Below, one piece after another: positions 395 to 33,534 of a DNA stretch of 33,608 nucleotides; the first letter of the stretch is position 1; each line of letters begins with the position of its first letter. A model generated the notes under the pieces. It searched no databases, was not told the origin of the DNA, and worked only from the letters and a program-made list of their open reading frames with translations. Origin of the DNA: a virus (taxonomy: Duplodnaviria > Caudoviricetes); the IMG/VR virus record IMGVR_UViG_3300042807_000483, positions 1 through 33,608 of that record. One strand, 5' to 3'. A program made the position numbers and the translations under genes.

Positions 395-420
395 AGCAAA
401 TCCTTTCTTGTGGTACTCCA

Positions 421-1102: not shown

Positions 1103-1130
1103 TTTTTTCGTCCTTCCGTTGCGGTTGTGG

Positions 1131-1301: not shown

Positions 1302-1350
1302 TTTTCGTCCTTTCGTGTGGTTACGGTTACACAATAGCACCGATTGGCTA

Positions 1351-1634: not shown

Positions 1635-3458
1635 TTACACCCGACTTCCAGCGGTTGTGAGTGCTCGCTGAGCAAGCCGTCCAATCTGGTCAGCGGCGTC
1701 CGTTACACTCTCGCCGATTGGCACATACGAGGACGAGGGAGTCGAGCAGTAGCGCTCGCCGTTCCTGCCGTAGTGTCCAGCCCCGAGCCAGAGCACAGCC
1801 ACGCCTGCTCGGTCACATTGCTTGACGAAGTCCTCAGCAATCCGTTGCTGGTCAGCGGTGTAGTGTCCGTCAGAGACCACCACAAGCAACCTCGCCCCCG
1901 AGCCGTTGAGCAAGTCGAGCGCTCCGTCTAGTGCTTGGAACGCCTTGCCAAACTCCTCCGTCGAATCGCTCGCCGAGTAGACCCGAACCTTGTCTAGGTG
2001 CTGGCCTGCCTTGAGCGTGGGGAAAACGTCATCACCGTAGTAGACCATCGCGGTCCGTCCATGTACTCGCCGAGTTGCCTCAGAGAGAATCCATGCGGCG
2101 CTTGCCAACGGTTCCATCGCGGAGCGCATTGAGCCCGAGATGTCTACCATCACGCCGATGGTGAGGTTCGGGTCATCAACGTGCTTCCGTTGCACGCGGT
2201 TCCAAGGAGTGGCGGTGTCCATCACGCCTCGAGCACGCATGGCACGCCCTTGCACGACAGCGCGAGTGCGAAGCCGTCCTGGGGGAGTGGCGCTTGCCGA
2301 CTCGGTGCGAATACGGTCACGATACTTAGCACGCTCCAGAGCTTGGGCAATCCGCACAGCGCTCGCCCTCTCGAGAGGTGTGGGCAACCGTTCCGAAGTG
2401 AGCCGAGAGGAAGTCCTTTGGACTCCCGAGGGACCAGAGGAGTGCGAGAAAACTTTGCTGGCCACCTGCTGAGCCTGCTTCCGAGATTCGGCTTGGCTTG
2501 CCCTTTGCTCGACAGCCTCCTCGTTCTCCTCGGTGGTCTGCTGCTCCATGGCCTCGGCGGTTGCCTCGAACTCGGTTTCCTCGGCAGCTTCGGCAAGCGC
2601 TCCCATAATCTGGCGAGCAATCTGTCGAGCTTCCTCAGAGCCCTTGCCACCTTCGCCACCTTCGCTAGGCTGACCAGTCTCGGACTGAGCGTCCTCACCA
2701 GCCTCCTCGGAGTACTTGGTGACAATCTCAGCCCACTGGCGAGCGATGTCATACATTCTCGGAAGTGCGAACTTGGGGTCAAGAATCTGGAAATGAGTCC
2801 ACAAAGGACGAAGCTCCTCAAACAGGCCCTTCGGCGCAATCACGTCAAAGATGTCAGTCAGAGGTTTGATATCCTCGTTGGTCAAGACGCCAGCCTGAAC
2901 TCGAGCGCAAGACAGAGCCATCAGCTTGGCAACGCCACGCACAGAGGAGATGGACTCGGCGTCAACCTCTGAGAGGTCTCCGAGCACAATCCCGAGAGCG
3001 CAAGCGCGTAGGAAGGCTTTGTTGTTGGGCATAAGCCGAACGCCGAACGCCTCGATACGTCCCTCCTCGAGAAGATAGAAACCTTCCCACTCGAGGGGAT
3101 TGAGGTCAAGCTGGGCCTGCCTAATGTCGAAAGTTGAGAAGCGAGCGTGCAGTGCTTCGTGGAAAATCGCGCCAGTTCCCTTGGGGAACTCGAACTGCTG
3201 AGAGCGCTCAGTAAGGTCACCAATCTGCTCGGGAGTAGCTCCAGCAAAAGCAATCTCGGTGTTGACCTCAACCTCGCTGGTCGCAGGAGTGTAGAGGGCA
3301 GGAGCGCCTTGGGTAATCGCAGCCTTGCTACCAACATATGCAACAAGGTCGTGGCGGTCGGCCCAAGTGTTGACCAGTCGGCCAATACGAGCACCAACGT
3401 GAAGCCACTCGGTGGGCGTGGTACGCGAGAGAGTCGCGCTGTCTCCAAAGTGTGTCAT
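1635..3458 (-). CDS. vWA-domain protein with N-terminal HExxH zincin-like domain (CobT-like partner of MoxR/CbbQ ATPase)
   Basis: IFHEALH plus downstream LLEEGRIE; acidic/Gly-rich linker; MIDAS motif DISGS...T...SDG in the C-terminal domain; adjacent to AAA+ ATPase. Confidence 0.85.
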   Translation of the reverse strand: MTHFGDSATLSRTTPTEWLHVGARIGRLVNTWADRHDLVAYVGSKAAITQGAPALYTPATSEVEVNTEIAFAGATPEQIGDLTERSQQFEFPKGTGAIFHEALHARFSTFDIRQAQLDLNPLEWEGFYLLEEGRIEAFGVRLMPNNKAFLRACALGIVLGDLSEVDAESISSVRGVAKLMALSCARVQAGVLTNEDIKPLTDIFDVIAPKGLFEELRPLWTHFQILDPKFALPRMYDIARQWAEIVTKYSEEAGEDAQSETGQPSEGGEGGKGSEEARQIARQIMGALAEAAEETEFEATAEAMEQQTTEENEEAVEQRASQAESRKQAQQVASKVFSHSSGPSGVQRTSSRLTSERLPTPLERASAVRIAQALERAKYRDRIRTESASATPPGRLRTRAVVQGRAMRARGVMDTATPWNRVQRKHVDDPNLTIGVMVDISGSMRSAMEPLASAAWILSEATRRVHGRTAMVYYGDDVFPTLKAGQHLDKVRVYSASDSTEEFGKAFQALDGALDLLNGSGARLLVVVSDGHYTADQQRIAEDFVKQCDRAGVAVLWLGAGHYGRNGERYCSTPSSSYVPIGESVTDAADQIGRLAQRALTTAGSRV

Positions 3459-3487
3459 TGTCGTCCTTTCGTTGTGGTCGTCCTCTG

Positions 3488-3516
3488 ATGATACTAAAAA
3501 ATATTGATATTGTCAA
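3488..3516 (-). promoter_or_regulatory. SigA/sigma70-type promoter for the vWA gene
   Basis: TTGACA (3511-3516) - 17 nt - TATCAT (3488-3493) on the minus strand. Confidence 0.85.
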
Positions 3517-3524
3517 GCTAGATA

Positions 3525-3558
3525 CTGAGGAGGGAGGGGACGACTCCTCCCCCCTCAG
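3525..3558 (-). terminator. GC-rich hairpin after the AAA+ ATPase gene (probable terminator)
   Basis: CTGAGGAGGGAGG...CCTCCCCCCTCAG imperfect inverted repeat; weak U tail. Confidence 0.5.
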
Positions 3559-3563
3559 AGTTT

Positions 3564-4595
3564 CTAGATTCGCGCTGGAAGCGCGGTCTCTCCGTAGGTC
3601 CGACTGAACACATCGGCAACTACAGGTCGGTCCATCTCGGGAGCTGCTGCGAGCAGATTGGCTACTGCCCACTTGGTCCCGAATACCTTCTCGAGGTCGC
3701 GGAAGGCGAGGAGCTCGCGGAACTGCGGAGACCACGAGACTTCCCCAGACTCCTGCTTGCGAGCAAGGTTCTGCGCCGCAGTCACAGCTGGAGTCGGAAC
3801 GCCGAGCTTGCGAGCAAGTCCCCAGTCGGTGGTCATCTCAACCTGAACAACGAACCTCGAGAGCAGAGCCTCAGAGAGGCGGACTCCGGGGGCGTTGGGG
3901 TTGGTCGCCGCGATGACGTAGAAACCATCCTGAGCCTTGACAGTGCCACGCTCTGGATTGGCAGTCACAGTGTACTCGCGACGTCCATCCATCAGGCCAT
4001 AGACAATCGACAGGACCTTGGGGTCAATGAGCCCAATCTCGTCAATCAGCAAAGGCTTGCCAGCTTCCGCAGCTTTGACCAGAGGCCCATCAGTCCAGAT
4101 GAACTCTCCACCAGGGAGCTGAGAGTAGCCACCAACAAGGTCAGAAACCTCGGTGTCGCCAGAGCCGAGCACAGTGTAGAGCTCGTCTCCAAAGGCTGCC
4201 TCAACAAGCGCAGTCTTTCCACAGCCTGGTGCGCCATAGAGCAGAATGAAGTGCTGGTTGTCTCGCGCCTTGCGCAAGACCAGAACGTCATCGTGCTCGC
4301 CCCATGCTCGAGTGAAGTAGTGCTCGCCATTTGGACGGAGCCACTTCTTCGTCTCGTGCGAGAGGTCAGCAGAAGCGTTGCCCTCAGTCGGAACGGAGCC
4401 CGAACGTCCACGTGCTCGAGACGCTGGGTTAGCCAGTCCCTCAAGAACGTTGTCAAAGTCCTCGAGAGAGTGCTGTCCAAAGACAGAGGCTAGGTAGGTG
4501 GGAAGCTCGGGGTGGAGCTTCTCCATGGAGTAGATGGCGCTGGGGCTCATAATTTCCCCTAATCTGCCAAGTACTGAGGTGTTTAGGTCATTCAT
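3564..4595 (-). CDS. MoxR/CbbQ/NorQ (CobS-like, AAA_5) AAA+ ATPase
   Basis: Walker A GAPGCGKT, DLVGGY, Walker B LLIDE, sensor ATNP, ALLSRF Arg finger. Confidence 0.9.
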   Translation of the reverse strand: MNDLNTSVLGRLGEIMSPSAIYSMEKLHPELPTYLASVFGQHSLEDFDNVLEGLANPASRARGRSGSVPTEGNASADLSHETKKWLRPNGEHYFTRAWGEHDDVLVLRKARDNQHFILLYGAPGCGKTALVEAAFGDELYTVLGSGDTEVSDLVGGYSQLPGGEFIWTDGPLVKAAEAGKPLLIDEIGLIDPKVLSIVYGLMDGRREYTVTANPERGTVKAQDGFYVIAATNPNAPGVRLSEALLSRFVVQVEMTTDWGLARKLGVPTPAVTAAQNLARKQESGEVSWSPQFRELLAFRDLEKVFGTKWAVANLLAAAPEMDRPVVADVFSRTYGETALPARI

Positions 4596-4622
4596 GGTGT
4601 CGTCCTTCTTTCTTTCGTGTGG

Positions 4623-5081
4623 TTATACGCTTGGAGTTGATTCAGTTGTGAACAAGGATTCGTCATATCCTGCCCCAACGCGAGCTCTGTTGAGTCGGCG
4701 CATAAAAGCTTGGGGAGTGTTGTGTGTCGAAACCTCGCGAATATCTTCGTAGGTTAGCTCAATCGCAACAGGAACCTTGTAGAGGTCCCAGCTGGCGTCT
4801 GCAAATCCTCGGAAGTAGTGCTCGATGTCCTGGATAAACGGAACTGTCTGAGAAATGCCTAGTTGCACTTCCTCAGTCTTGTAAATGTTCGTGGGAACAT
4901 TGGAGCTGTAGAACCTCCAAGACTTCCTTGGATGGGTCGCACTAATCTGCCTAGTCAAAACCTGCATGGGTACTGACGGAGAAGTAGAGCTCTCTGCAAA
5001 TCCAGGTATAACAATAATCTGCGCAGTGCGATATCCCTTGCGAAGCTCGAGATAGAGCGCCTTACCTACTGCTTTGGTCAT
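4623..5081 (-). CDS. Hypothetical protein
   Basis: 152-aa ORF with AACCACACGAAAGGACGA leader. Confidence 0.7.
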   Translation of the reverse strand: MTKAVGKALYLELRKGYRTAQIIVIPGFAESSTSPSVPMQVLTRQISATHPRKSWRFYSSNVPTNIYKTEEVQLGISQTVPFIQDIEHYFRGFADASWDLYKVPVAIELTYEDIREVSTHNTPQAFMRRLNRARVGAGYDESLFTTESTPSV

Positions 5082-5101
5082 TTGGTCGTCCTTTCGTGTG
5101 G

Positions 5102-5341
5102 TTAGGTTCCTAGGATATCATCTCCTAGAGTCTGTGTCAAGCAGCCAGAGCATAAAACTTGTGAACTCTGCTCGTCAACAACTATAAATAACTTTTCGTC
5201 TTTTGCTAACAATAGCATCTGTCTGCACTTATCGCAAGTTGGCTGGATGATTATCTGTTGCCAGTCGTCAATGAGCCCAGCCCTGTAAGCAAGGTTTAGC
5301 TCTTCAGCAGAGCTAAGAGTGTGAATTTCTAAATGTCGCAT
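5102..5341 (-). CDS. Small zinc-ribbon protein (79 aa, leaderless start)
   Basis: CDKC...CSGC; TACACT -10 element 7 nt before the ATG at 5341. Confidence 0.6.
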   Translation of the reverse strand: MRHLEIHTLSSAEELNLAYRAGLIDDWQQIIIQPTCDKCRQMLLLAKDEKLFIVVDEQSSQVLCSGCLTQTLGDDILGT

Positions 5342-5444: not shown

Positions 5445-5513
5445 AAAGGAGAACTCCCGCTGGCGAAGGAAGGAAGGGGGGTGGGCCAGCGGGAGTCGCA
5501 CATCAATGTGCTC
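5445..5513 (-). ncRNA. Candidate small RNA with a C/U-rich loop
   Basis: Extended -10 TGcTAATCT (~5520-5528); GCACA/TGTGC hairpin; perfect 12-bp stem ACTCCCGCTGGC/GCCAGCGGGAGT (5453-5496) with a 20-nt nearly all-pyrimidine loop; TCTCCTTTT tail. Confidence 0.45.
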
Positions 5514-6995: not shown

Positions 6996-7238
6996 CTAGT
7001 AGGAGTACTCCTCGGGTTGAGGCAGGTCCATATCGTACTCGCCGTTGCACCGTTCGCATGTCCAACGGAAGTTTCCTTGACCGTCATACCAAGATTCGGT
7101 TCCCTCTTGGTCAGCCCACTCCTCAAAGAGAGTGCAGTCGTCATTACGGCAGTAGTCTTCGTGCACGCCGTTACGTTCTAGTTGCGGGCCTGCAATTGCG
7201 TACTCGAGACCCGTTACGCCTTCTGGGTAGTTGCTCAT
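6996..7238 (-). CDS. Small acidic zinc-ribbon protein (80 aa; start revised to MSNYP...)
   Basis: ATG at 7238 after the AACCACAACCGAAGGACG leader; CRNDDC...CERC. Confidence 0.7.
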   Translation of the reverse strand: MSNYPEGVTGLEYAIAGPQLERNGVHEDYCRNDDCTLFEEWADQEGTESWYDGQGNFRWTCERCNGEYDMDLPQPEEYSY

Positions 7239-7378
7239 CGTCCGTCCTTCGGTTGTGGTTGGTGGGTGGCGCTTATATCTTCGGTCACGGTCGCGCCACT
7301 TCCGTGCCATAGTCCGGGGCGCTATGCCCCCTCCCCTGTTCGGTGTTGGACATACCACCTAGCAGAGGTACCCCCAGT

Positions 7379-11586: not shown

Positions 11587-11848
11587 ACTAATGTCTACTA
11601 ATGTCTACTAATGTCTACTAATCCTACTAATCCAGACTAATACGACTAATCTGATTGAAAAACCTAATTACGCATGATGTGCGCACGTGTATATAGAGAA
11701 AATCAATTAAATTAGTAGCTTTAGTCTACATTAGTCTACATTAGTCTTCAATAAAATTAGTAGGATTAGTGCGTTTTAGTCTGCTTTAGTCTACATTAGT
11801 TGCTTTAGGAACATTAGTAGGATTAGTCTGCTTTAGTCTACATTAGTC
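11587..11848. repeat. Inverted array of ~10-bp iteron-like repeats (candidate replication origin)
   Basis: 7 ACTAAT cores at 9-10 bp spacing (11587-11650), a ~60-bp spacer, then ~14 TTAGT cores in the opposite orientation (11712-11847); no ORF. Confidence 0.8.
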
Positions 11849-11909
11849 CACCCACCACCGCAATCCAGAAACCAAAAAAGGGGGGCTGTCTACTTGACAA
11901 CCCCCCTCC

Positions 11910-14274: not shown

Positions 14275-14357
14275 AAGAAAAGTATATACTAGTTCCCACT
14301 ACTAGTGCAAGTCAGTGCTACACTTCAAGCTAACCACACGATAGAGAGGTAGATAAG

Positions 14358-14510
14358 ATGCAAGACACAGAGACTAAAGTTCCCTCCGACGACACCCCTA
14401 GCGGTTTCAATGGACTAACCTGGGGAGAGATACGAGAGTGGGAGCGGAAGAGTGCAGATTCCTGCAAGCGCTTCCACGAACAGCCCTGCAACTGCTCCCC
14501 ATGGGACTAG
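14358..14510 (+). CDS. 50-aa hypothetical protein (not in ORF track)
   Basis: MQDTETKV...CKRFHEQPCNCSPWD*; preceded by TAACCACACG and a GAGAGG RBS. Confidence 0.55.
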   Translation: MQDTETKVPSDDTPSGFNGLTWGEIREWERKSADSCKRFHEQPCNCSPWD

Positions 14511-17125: not shown

Positions 17126-18091
17126 GTGTCTAAGGTTTGGGGAGTTGTTCCAGAGACGTTAGTTCTCACTGAAAAGGGATATGAAACAATCTTGTCCCTA
17201 GAGGGCAAACCAACAAAAATTTGGAATGGCTACACTTTCGAGGAAGCAATTGCAATTAAGGCGGGCTCAGACACCCCCATAGTAAAACTTACAACTGAAA
17301 ACACACTGGAACTTTTGTGCTCAAGTAACTCTCTTGTATATCTTCAAAAAGGAAAAACACTTTCTGAGATAGAAACCAAGGAAGTTGGGGAACTGACTAG
17401 TGACCACAAAATATTGAGAGTTCCTAGTTGTCCTATCTCGGAGGGTGGTCAGGAGAATTTTCCCTTTGCCTATAGCCACGGTTTCTACTCAGGCTCCGAA
17501 AGGTACTGGCGCTCAAGACTAAAAGTCTCTCGAGCATCTATCTTTGGAGTTCGTAGGACAGCTTTACCAGAGCTAGCGCTTGACACAGAAAAAACCACAT
17601 CTACTTCACTGGTCTACAACAAAAGTCTCCCTCGAGACTTCGAAGTACCACTAGACCCAAAGTACAGTGTAGAAACAAAGCTCGAGTGGCTCGCGGGTCT
17701 ATTTGACTCAGGTCTTTTAAAAAGAAAGACGGGCCCAACGATATGGCATCTGCACTCAAACAACGTAGATTTTTTGTACCAAGTGAAACTTCTTTTACAA
17801 ACTTTAGGAGTTGACTCTAGGCATGTGGCCAACCAAGACCACAGGTTCCAGCTCTACTCTCTAAGAATTATTGCAAGGAATATAGAAAATCTTATTGATT
17901 TAGGAATCCCAACTCTAGTGAGAAAACTAGAGCGGTCCCCAAATCTGCCAAGTATTACAGGTCCACAGTCATCTCGCTCAGCAAGAGTTGTCTTGGTAGA
18001 GGATGCACTAAGAACTTCAGATATCTACAATTTTGAAACAACAACCAGAAAGTCAGCAATCCTAAACGGAATGCTAGCTGCAATTAACTAG
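17126..18091 (+). CDS. Free-standing, degenerate intein (Hint + LAGLIDADG) of the RNR-intein type
   Basis: GVVPETLVLTEKGY...IWNG (block A), AYSHGFYSG and WLAGLFDSG (LAGLIDADG-like), LLLQTLGV (block H), DIYNF...ILNGML (block F/G). Confidence 0.8.
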   Translation: MSKVWGVVPETLVLTEKGYETILSLEGKPTKIWNGYTFEEAIAIKAGSDTPIVKLTTENTLELLCSSNSLVYLQKGKTLSEIETKEVGELTSDHKILRVPSCPISEGGQENFPFAYSHGFYSGSERYWRSRLKVSRASIFGVRRTALPELALDTEKTTSTSLVYNKSLPRDFEVPLDPKYSVETKLEWLAGLFDSGLLKRKTGPTIWHLHSNNVDFLYQVKLLLQTLGVDSRHVANQDHRFQLYSLRIIARNIENLIDLGIPTLVRKLERSPNLPSITGPQSSRSARVVLVEDALRTSDIYNFETTTRKSAILNGMLAAIN

Positions 18092-28508: not shown

Positions 28509-28580
28509 GCCCTCTTAGCTCAGAAGCAGAGCACCTGTCTTGTAAACAGGAGGTCAGGATTGCAAAACTCCTAGGGGGCC
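28509..28580 (+). tRNA. tRNA-Thr (anticodon UGU), atypical D/T loops, no encoded CCA
   Basis: Acceptor GCCCTCT/AGGGGGC, D-stem GCTC/GAGC, anticodon arm CCTGT-CTTGTAA-ACAGG, T-arm AGGAT-TGCAAAA-CTCCT. Confidence 0.8.
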
Positions 28581-31751: not shown

Positions 31752-31949
31752 TTATTTAACAAAGCCGTTCTTTACCATCACAGAAGTCTGATTCTTGAGA
31801 GCTCGAGGCTCTGATGGCGTAGAACTAAAAAACATTACCTGTCCATTAGGTGCTCGATAACGTAGGTGCCCACCCCTAGAGTGGTCAACAACCCATCCTT
31901 GAGCAATTGCTTTTGCTGCCAATTGTTTGGCTTCTTTTCGTGTGGTCAT
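31752..31949 (-). CDS. hicA: HicA-like mRNA interferase (dsRBD-like fold), no adjacent hicB
   Basis: GWVVDHSRGGHLRYRAPNG...SSTPS; 65 aa, basic. Confidence 0.65.
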   Translation of the reverse strand: MTTRKEAKQLAAKAIAQGWVVDHSRGGHLRYRAPNGQVMFFSSTPSEPRALKNQTSVMVKNGFVK

Positions 31950-33105: not shown

Positions 33106-33121
33106 AGAGAAATCGTACCAT

Positions 33122-33203
33122 AACGAGAACCCCCCTCACGAGATACGCAAGGGGGGCTCTACTAATCGTTAACCACAACGAAAGGAGGCCTATAAGACCT
33201 TCT
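33122..33203 (-). ncRNA. Candidate trans-acting antisense sRNA (~80 nt)
   Basis: Extended -10 TGtTACTAT (33209-33217); 5' hairpin AGGTC/GGCCT; seed CCTTTCGTTGTGGTTA; terminator-like GAGCCCCCC/GGGGGGTTC; no ORF. Confidence 0.55.
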
Positions 33204-33237
33204 TAGGTATAGTAACACATTTTATTTAGTATTTAAC

Positions 33238-33534
33238 TTAATTAACACCAATTTGGTAAGTATATCTTACCCAGTGATACCCATCTGGGCCCATAATAGA
33301 AATCTTAAGACGACCGTCCACGTCAATCTCAAATTTGTCTGAGTCTTTGAACTCTAACCATGTACCGTCAATTTGAACAGCACCATTTTTAAAGTTAGTC
33401 ACTCTTCTCGGAGACTCCATGTTAACAACAAAACGCTCGACAAAGTTTGAGCTACGACTGTTCGCAACCTCATACTTTTTCAGCCAGACAGTGCTGGACC
33501 GCTTCAAGGCCTCTACGACCTCGTACTTATTCAT
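33238..33534 (-). CDS. Hypothetical protein
   Basis: 98 aa; GGAGG RBS followed by AACCACA-ATG. Confidence 0.75.
   Translation of the reverse strand: MNKYEVVEALKRSSTVWLKKYEVANSRSSNFVERFVVNMESPRRVTNFKNGAVQIDGTWLEFKDSDKFEIDVDGRLKISIMGPDGYHWVRYTYQIGVN

Follow-up and report, generated by a model that had tools for sequence, protein, structure and literature searches.

The stretch of DNA analysed here (33,608 nucleotides; hereafter, the window) is an entire virus record of 33.6 kb. Its WhiB, class I ribonucleotide reductase, Mom-like and M23 endolysin genes, together with its closest named relatives (Actinomycetia phage DSL-LC01, Microbacterium phages and Gordonia phages), point to a large, uncultured phage of Actinobacteria as the source. 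Relatives with complete genomes measure 130–160 kb; the DSL-LC01 genome is metagenome-assembled, according to the accessible text of its report (PMC10611076). The minus strand of the window bears a vWA-domain gene (1635-3458, 607 aa) with a TTGACA promoter of its own at 3516, and a gene for an AAA_5 (MoxR/CobS-like) ATPase (3564-4595) whose operon is headed by p152 (152 aa, start at 5081, promoter at 5140). The vWA domain is weak in the window protein, VWA_CoxE being recognised in 10 of 15 aligned homologues; searches for a solved relative by sequence or for an NCBIfam family gave no match for this protein. On the same strand lie an ORF for a HicA-like protein (31752-31949, 65 aa; weak PHROG toxin match, E = 8 × 10–4), which has a dedicated TTGACA promoter and no evident HicB partner next to it, and p98 (33238..33534, 98 aa, family unassigned), preceded by a TTGACA-17-TATCCT promoter. 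TTGACA-17-TANNNT boxes were found ahead of the genes starting at 394, 3458, 5081, 31949 and 33534, so the original prediction was right to assign TTGACA promoters to several of the targets it listed; it is from such boxes ahead of short genes that we infer these genes to be early. Elsewhere, the window contains a long intergenic gap with direct and inverted ACTAAT/ATTAGT repeats of origin-like appearance (11587-11851), a free-standing, intein-like ORF with a LAGLIDADG-like domain directly upstream of the gene for the large subunit of ribonucleotide reductase (17126-18091, plus strand), and a tRNA gene (28509-28580, plus strand).

Directly downstream of p98, the minus strand between 33219 and 33121 carries an extended −10 box followed by a 5′ hairpin, then a core of 26 nt and, finally, a strong hairpin at the end. 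The −10 box (33209..33219; TGTG-n-TACTAT, that is, TGTGTTACTAT beginning at 33219) marks a predicted promoter, and the 5′ hairpin behind it (33186..33200; AGGUC-loop-GRCCU) provides with its 3′ arm the first bases of a CCUCC run; the −10 box and 5′ hairpin originally described for this strand were confirmed. The spacing from the promoter and the position of the end hairpin predict a non-coding RNA of ∼82 nt (33121..33202). No ORF starting with ATG, GTG or TTG occurs on the strand of the unit, where the only frame is one of 31 codons that begins with ATA. The core (33163..33188) consists of a seed complementary to ribosome-binding leaders, followed by UAACGA, which has two possible partners: the seed itself, or the UCGUU(A) located behind the end hairpin. 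The seed had been presented as exposed, but it is partly closed: in three of the four homologues described below the lowest-energy fold contains a 6-bp UCGUUG/UAACGA hairpin with a UGGU loop, and in the window the open-seed form costs 2.1 kcal/mol over the lowest-energy fold. The end hairpin (33126..33160) is GC-rich, forms 15 bp in the window (13–15 bp among the homologues) and has a fold z of −5.0 to −5.9, in keeping with the terminator-like character ascribed to it, but no U-tract follows it and it was not called a terminator. A role in termination is suggested by a second −10 box of the TRTG extended type (33112..33122, minus strand) that stands directly behind it, at 33122, 6 nt ahead of the ATG of the next gene (33105), for which a leaderless start is predicted; a similar −10 box, 6 nt and an ATG follow the unit in the other three homologues. 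The predicted fold energy is −38.7 kcal/mol for the minus strand and −27.8 kcal/mol for the plus strand. The p98 gene precedes the unit in every homologue found, with no terminator between the two, and a p98 transcript started at TTGACA-17-TATCCT is predicted to read on into the unit.

Homologues of the unit were found via the p98 gene. There are four distinct copies (the window, L001, L002 and L224), L002 being that of genome G001; L223, L225 and L226 repeat these. The 26-nt core is identical in all four. The neighbouring p98 gene retains a single invariant site among 24 four-fold ones and has a pairwise CDS identity of 71–75%, from which strong selection on the core can be deduced; the unit is non-coding and conserved beyond neutral expectation. 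The −10 box keeps the pattern TG-n-TA-n-TAT in the four sequences while the variable position of the hexamer changes; since it is retained throughout, and since the end hairpin, albeit with no U-tract, is followed by the −10 box of the next gene, the unit is predicted to be transcribed on its own. All five pairs of the 5′ hairpin are kept in the four sequences, with loops of different length; the 13–15 bp stem of the end hairpin is kept with an altered sequence in L002 and L224, and the UCGUU behind it is also retained. Six stem pairs vary on one side, every change passing via G-U; such changes are tolerated as pairs only on the minus strand, which favours a minus-strand RNA. Formal covariation of the stems, calculated with four sequences, was not above that of shuffles (251/500), yet it exceeded that of all slid controls. 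Since the seeds are identical in the four homologues, no compensatory changes are to be seen in the free-standing unit itself. On the plus strand of L002, an ATG with a frame of 10 codons comes after the motif copy, a start codon that the other three homologues lack; this segment (L002:1660-1690, with its Shine-Dalgarno (SD) sequence, ATG and 10 codons) resembles the vWA leader and start, and the unit may have arisen as an inverted copy of a leader.

The Rfam covariance models did not match the unit (the window, L001, L002 and L224 gave only tRNAs). A scan of viral contigs for the exact 16-nt seed yielded 28 stretches, of which two were homologues and 26 lacked the layout, many of them being ordinary leaders; a promoter-plus-hairpin pattern gave three matches in the viral contigs, i.e. 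two homologues and one unrelated sequence. Scanning bacterial genomes with a pattern produced 33 matches, in 26 of which a start codon immediately followed the SD of the plus strand; these were discarded as ordinary leaders. When 48 relatives were scanned with CCTCCTTTC (a set that left out L061 and 14 short contigs), nine contained a match, none of which was taken as the unit. A second possible free-standing anti-leader element was observed at L208:7762-7838 (around 27783 of G050), followed by a terminator with a U-tract; its covariance score is weak (E = 0.73), and the relative that hosts it also has a tail after vWA of the kind described below.

The motif to which the seed is complementary, ACCACAACGAAAGGA, occurs exactly twice in the window: in the vWA leader (3464-3478, minus strand) and, on the plus strand, in the unit (33172-33186). 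The 15/15 complement to the vWA ribosome-binding region that had been announced is therefore real, and this leader, ∼30 kb from the unit, is the best predicted target. Allowing up to three mismatches, six matches were found where 1.2 were expected (0/100 shuffles as high). A variant one nucleotide shorter is exact at 1308-1321 and 5089-5102, at the two sites for which a 16-nt complement with one bulge had been proposed, and has one mismatch at 401, 4610 and 31933; its total of seven compares with 3.3 expected (4/100 shuffles as high). On the mRNA strand a start codon follows every copy except that of the unit and one internal to the HicA-like ORF. The unit had been taken to hold the only copy lacking a start: its copy indeed lacks one in the window, but so does that of the HicA-like ORF, and L002 has an ATG. 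Besides vWA, the predicted minus-strand targets are the leaders of p152 (5089..5104; complement 17/17 in G001), of a 56-aa gene (p56; 1308..1323, start at 1301) and of a 158-aa gene (p158; 1111..1125, start at 1102), and, more weakly, those of the AAA_5 ATPase gene (4610..4624, start at 4595), of a 113-aa gene (p113; 401..414, start at 394, promoter at 449) and of an 80-aa gene (p80; 7245..7259, start at 7238); on the plus strand, the leader of a putative ORF of 50 codons (14331..14346, start at 14358) is a possible target.

Pairing was also assessed over all predicted start regions of the window. Nine of the 87 predicted start regions of the window paired with the RNA at ≤−20 kcal/mol (−27.1 to −20.5, followed by a gap to −17.8), namely those at 3458, 1102, 1301, 5081, 7238, 14358, 4595 and 394 plus an off-frame call at 357 that overlaps the gene starting at 394. 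In controls in which the anti-SD part was kept and the rest shuffled, the mean number of such sites was 2.0 and the maximum eight, none of 150 reaching nine. The three SD-led genes with a TTGAC promoter all rank among these top nine. With the full RNA folded, net energies were −18 to −20 kcal/mol for vWA, p152, p158 and the ORF at 14358, −12 to −17 kcal/mol for p56, AAA, p80, p113 and p98, and 0 to −6 kcal/mol for the HicA-like gene and nine other starts. The three strongest targets in G001 were p152 (17/17), p56 and vWA (15/15), and nine of its ten promoter-led starts fell in the top 31 of 218. The seed is hence complementary to the ribosome-binding regions of mRNAs encoded elsewhere, and with vWA it could pair only in trans since the unit lies 30 kb away in the window and 24 kb away in G001. 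The list of near matches originally proposed stood in part: 401 and 4610 differ by one mismatch, and the leaders at 1111, 7245 and 14331 belong to the top nine, but two sites did not hold. That at 31934 lies inside the HicA-like coding sequence, just after the ATG, with a net energy of −5.6 kcal/mol similar to that of non-targets; that at 33534, the start of p98, offers only AACCACA and the ATG, and the three homologous starts do not show this pairing. The seed includes CCUCCUUUC, which resembles the tail of actinobacterial 16S rRNA, but the idea that the RNA is a general anti-SD decoy against host mRNAs was put aside: the 5′ hairpin accounts for the leading CC, and the sequence of the 3′ half is particular to the phage.

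An AAA ATPase query retrieved 64 related loci with phage-specific leader variants, and in most of them a hairpin located directly after the vWA stop codon displays an anti-leader loop. When the vWA proteins were grouped at 70% identity, an anti-SD word stood open in the 100 nt behind the vWA stop in 25 of the resulting 32 clusters. Between these 100 nt and the vWA, AAA or p152 leaders, the longest perfect complement averaged 8.6 nt for the phage's own leaders and 6.7 nt for those of other phages (32 clusters; permutation p = 5 × 10–5, a value that overstates independence because kin share sequence). The result was the same with 41 and with 19 clusters, and three controls (the end of the CDS, the region 200–300 nt further on, and shuffled sequence) were null. 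Thus, leader GGGAATAGGAA faces loop TTCCTATTCCC in L036, TTTTAGAAAGGG faces CCCTTTCTAAAA in L051, and TGACGGAAGG faces CCTTCCGTCA in L032 and L045; in DSL-LC01 the match reaches 13 nt. With a median of 25 leaders per locus, and with the window and G001 scored by their free-standing unit, the vWA leader was best or tied by match length in 16 of the 32 clusters (untied in nine) and was not the top match in the other 16; loop energy ranked it first in 6 of the 32, versus 1.3 expected. In L036, L043, L045, L051 and L068, whose vWA leader deviates from the shared motif, the loop stays with that leader. A TG-n-TAnnnT box was present near the vWA stop in just one of the 32 clusters, and the tails are therefore read as parts of the 3′-UTR; Rfam provided no family match at the loci of seven relatives. 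A check for a co-varying sRNA in related phages with other leaders had been suggested: their loops do co-vary, but they reside on the 3′ end of vWA and have no promoter of their own. A covariance model built from the four homologues of the unit and run on 99 loci (1.84 Mb) scored only its four training copies (best other, E = 0.2); as the vWA tails were undetected, this model does not support a common ancestry of unit and tails, and the free unit may be either a displaced tail or a fresh inverted copy of a leader. In L040, L051, L052, L057, L085 and L088, C-rich anti-SD words recur in the loops of the terminators that come after the first hairpin.

Another anti-leader hairpin of the window immediately follows the stop codon of AAA (3525..3558, minus strand). 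The loop, AGUCGUCC, which G001 shares, forms the complement of the GGACGAC present in the leaders of p152, AAA and vWA. Across the family, AAA tails follow the leaders of the AAA operon (8.1 versus 6.3 nt; p = 5 × 10–5, 32 clusters). An 11-bp hairpin with a 20-nt C/U-rich loop containing three CCUUC words ends the run of genes from 7238 to 5530 (5454-5495, minus strand) and is a candidate for a third anti-SD tail. In the cultured Microbacterium phages A3Wally, Cece, Big4 and Pumpernickel a hairpin stands at the same place after the vWA gene. The loop of this hairpin shares a TGTCCCGCA-like word in the cultured Microbacterium phages of loci L212-L215, three of whose four vWA genes look leaderless.

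The vWA tail is absent from the window and from G001, where a simple hairpin terminator bearing a U-tract closes the vWA transcripts. Among 26 genomes or fragments scanned, an intergenic, structured anti-leader site of at least 11 nt with an extended −10 box was found only in the window and G001 (one each); in G005, G008, G014, G016 and G036 the site was the tail after vWA. No free-standing copy was found in the tail-less relatives G015 and G019, both of which are fragments. In a quick tree of vWA, G001 clustered with the window at an SH-aLRT of 100, and this pair shared an open fork with L036 and L043. Because these last two are tailed, and the Microbacterium outgroup has a hairpin at that place, loss of the tail in the clade of the window is the simpler reading. 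What appears to be new here is a conserved free-standing version of the element in a clade devoid of the vWA tail.

The conservation of the unit, its strand-specific G-U changes, the target ranking and the family-wide co-variation of loops and leaders make the prediction of a conserved, free-standing, minus-strand antisense unit directed against the phage's own ribosome-binding leaders well supported. We assign a probability of roughly 60% to the reading that the ∼82-nt RNA acts in trans, blocking ribosome loading on vWA and the AAA operon and probably on some five more genes. A host sigma-A-type polymerase would start at ∼33202, and read-through from p98 would add more RNA. Pairing would nucleate at the open CUUU/GUGGU bases, the seed would be freed as UAACGA pairs with the UCGUU behind the end hairpin, and a duplex of 15–17 bp would cover the Shine-Dalgarno sequence GAAAGGA. 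Since the RNA and its targets both have host-type promoters, it would likely act by negative feedback, capping the output of early proteins after a delay, rather than as a late-phase switch. MoxR-type hexamers may need far less vWA adaptor than ATPase, a possible reason for capping vWA. The ancestral design of the family was likely one anti-leader tail per transcript; in the clade of the window the vWA tail would have been replaced by a free-standing gene of wider reach. About five further leaders would come within that reach because the vWA leader of this clade is itself the consensus, and for the same reason a broad regulon is plausible for this clade only. The multi-target pairing may be a by-product, since the motif is partly a family-wide signature of strong leaders. 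A wider proposal, in which early transcripts obey an RNA-only feedback code, each ending in a loop that mirrors its own leader, and one tail has been freed as a multi-target trans sRNA, is tentative, and we regard it as doubtful.

The original prediction envisaged a master off-switch: the shared leader would be an address tag, and the RNA, accumulating later, would shut down the whole early class. This is unlikely. It would explain why the top nine of 87 start regions are motif leaders that include all three promoter-led ones, why the conserved GGUUA extension fits the TAACC of p152-type leaders (17/17 in G001) better than the vWA leader, and why the L059 tail loop matches 13 of 25 leaders by at least 9 nt. 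However, in other phages in which the motif is highly repeated the loop tracks the deviant leader of vWA (leaders matched by at least 9 nt: 0/25 in L043, 0/27 in L068 and 1/28 in L036), and the motif persists in complete genomes that have no free-standing copy; the shared leader therefore does not depend on a master RNA. In addition, the promoter of the unit is of host type with no sign of late timing, and two of the listed targets failed. As a family rule the address tag is not supported, since loops follow the vWA leader and the AAA loop follows the leaders of the AAA operon.

It is quite improbable that the unit is simply the conserved 3′ end of the p98 mRNA (a terminator or stability element, or a cis-acting tail) and that its complementarity to leaders is incidental. 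The constant position of the unit behind p98, with no terminator in between, would agree with this, as would the ability of the window seed to pair over p98's own start (net −13.7 kcal/mol); however, the remaining three homologues show no such pairing in cis, two of them being almost leaderless at the p98 start, and a terminator requires neither an invariant 26-nt core nor a conserved −10 box of its own. A very improbable explanation is that the motif is a protein-binding site (a DNA operator or an RNA site for a phage translation factor), the orphan copy being a decoy or operator whose pairing plays no part. Copies of a 15-nt repeat close to promoters might serve as an operator, and the orphan copy lies 20–35 nt downstream of the −10 box; yet in the relatives the complements sit in hairpin loops of the mRNA strand and track the leader of each phage, sometimes via G-U, and because these loops change so as to stay complementary to the leaders, RNA–RNA pairing is favoured. 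That the plus strand holds the remnant leader of a deleted gene, or the leader of a tiny peptide, is scarcely credible: its SD is strong, L002 adds an ATG and 10 codons, and the minus-strand −10 box also reads TATAnT on the plus strand, but three of the four homologues have no start codon, the core is invariant against saturated synonymous sites, and the G-U changes favour the minus strand.

The antisense RNA favoured here can be compared with several known systems. Gram-positive sRNAs of the RNAIII and RsaE type, which are encoded by the host, use unpaired C-rich loops to pair with the SD of several mRNAs. The unit shares with them a C/U-rich single-stranded motif opposed to SD sequences; it differs in that no sequence family matched and in that its seed extends into the phage-specific leader. 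In the icaR mRNA of Staphylococcus aureus, a C-rich anti-SD motif in the 3′-UTR pairs with the mRNA's own SD and blocks initiation, and the ectopically expressed 3′-UTR showed no action in trans, as far as the accessible part of that report describes (PMC3868564). The tails behind the vWA and AAA stops of the relatives, and the AAA tail of the window, reproduce this same-transcript layout, although in the phages the tails form hairpin loops whose sequence changes along with the leader of each phage. The unit of the window does not: it is encoded apart, 30 kb away from its best target and under a predicted promoter of its own, and its cis pairing to p98 is not conserved. In the available text on OppZ and CarZ of Vibrio cholerae, which are chromosomal sRNAs processed by RNase E, RNA from the 3′ end of an operon pairs with its own transcript and inhibits translation, producing negative feedback (PMC7398697). 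This is a possible mode for the tails of the relatives; here, however, the genome is that of an actinobacterial phage, and the unit does not come from the 3′ end of the operon it would repress. Occlusion of the ribosome-binding site is proposed for the unit because it is established sRNA biology, as the accessible accounts of icaR and OppZ/CarZ illustrate (PMC3868564, PMC7398697).

The C4 antisense RNA of phages P1 and P7 (Rfam RF01695; PMC2864571) is, like the unit, a short phage-encoded antisense RNA acting on the phage's own genes; it controls icd/ant in its own operon, for lysogeny, according to the part of the source available (PMC8198154). The targets of the unit would instead be distant leaders bearing one motif, and neither RF01695 nor any other Rfam model matched it. 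A literature search, from which subscription journals were mostly absent, retrieved no description of a phage RNA aimed at its own early leaders in this family. The start-associated sequences (SAS) of cluster K mycobacteriophages are repeated motifs located just before the start codons of non-structural genes, and their function is stated to need experimental verification (PMC12699233). The window motif has the same placement just upstream of start codons in an actinobacterial phage; it differs in that the SAS consensus GGGATAGGAGCCC had no match at ≤2 mismatches, and in that the accessible text on SAS mentions no antisense partner (PMC12699233). If the proposal made here is correct, the phage would limit its early protein output with no protein repressor, its natural seed/leader pairs would lend themselves to compensatory tests, and the hairpin after vWA in cultured Microbacterium phages would open part of the system to bench study. 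Pairing in cis by 3′-UTRs would then be linked to the birth of trans sRNAs. Under the wider, doubtful proposal of a feedback code, the window would capture a cis element as it becomes a multi-target trans sRNA, and the start-associated motifs of actinophages would acquire a testable mechanism.
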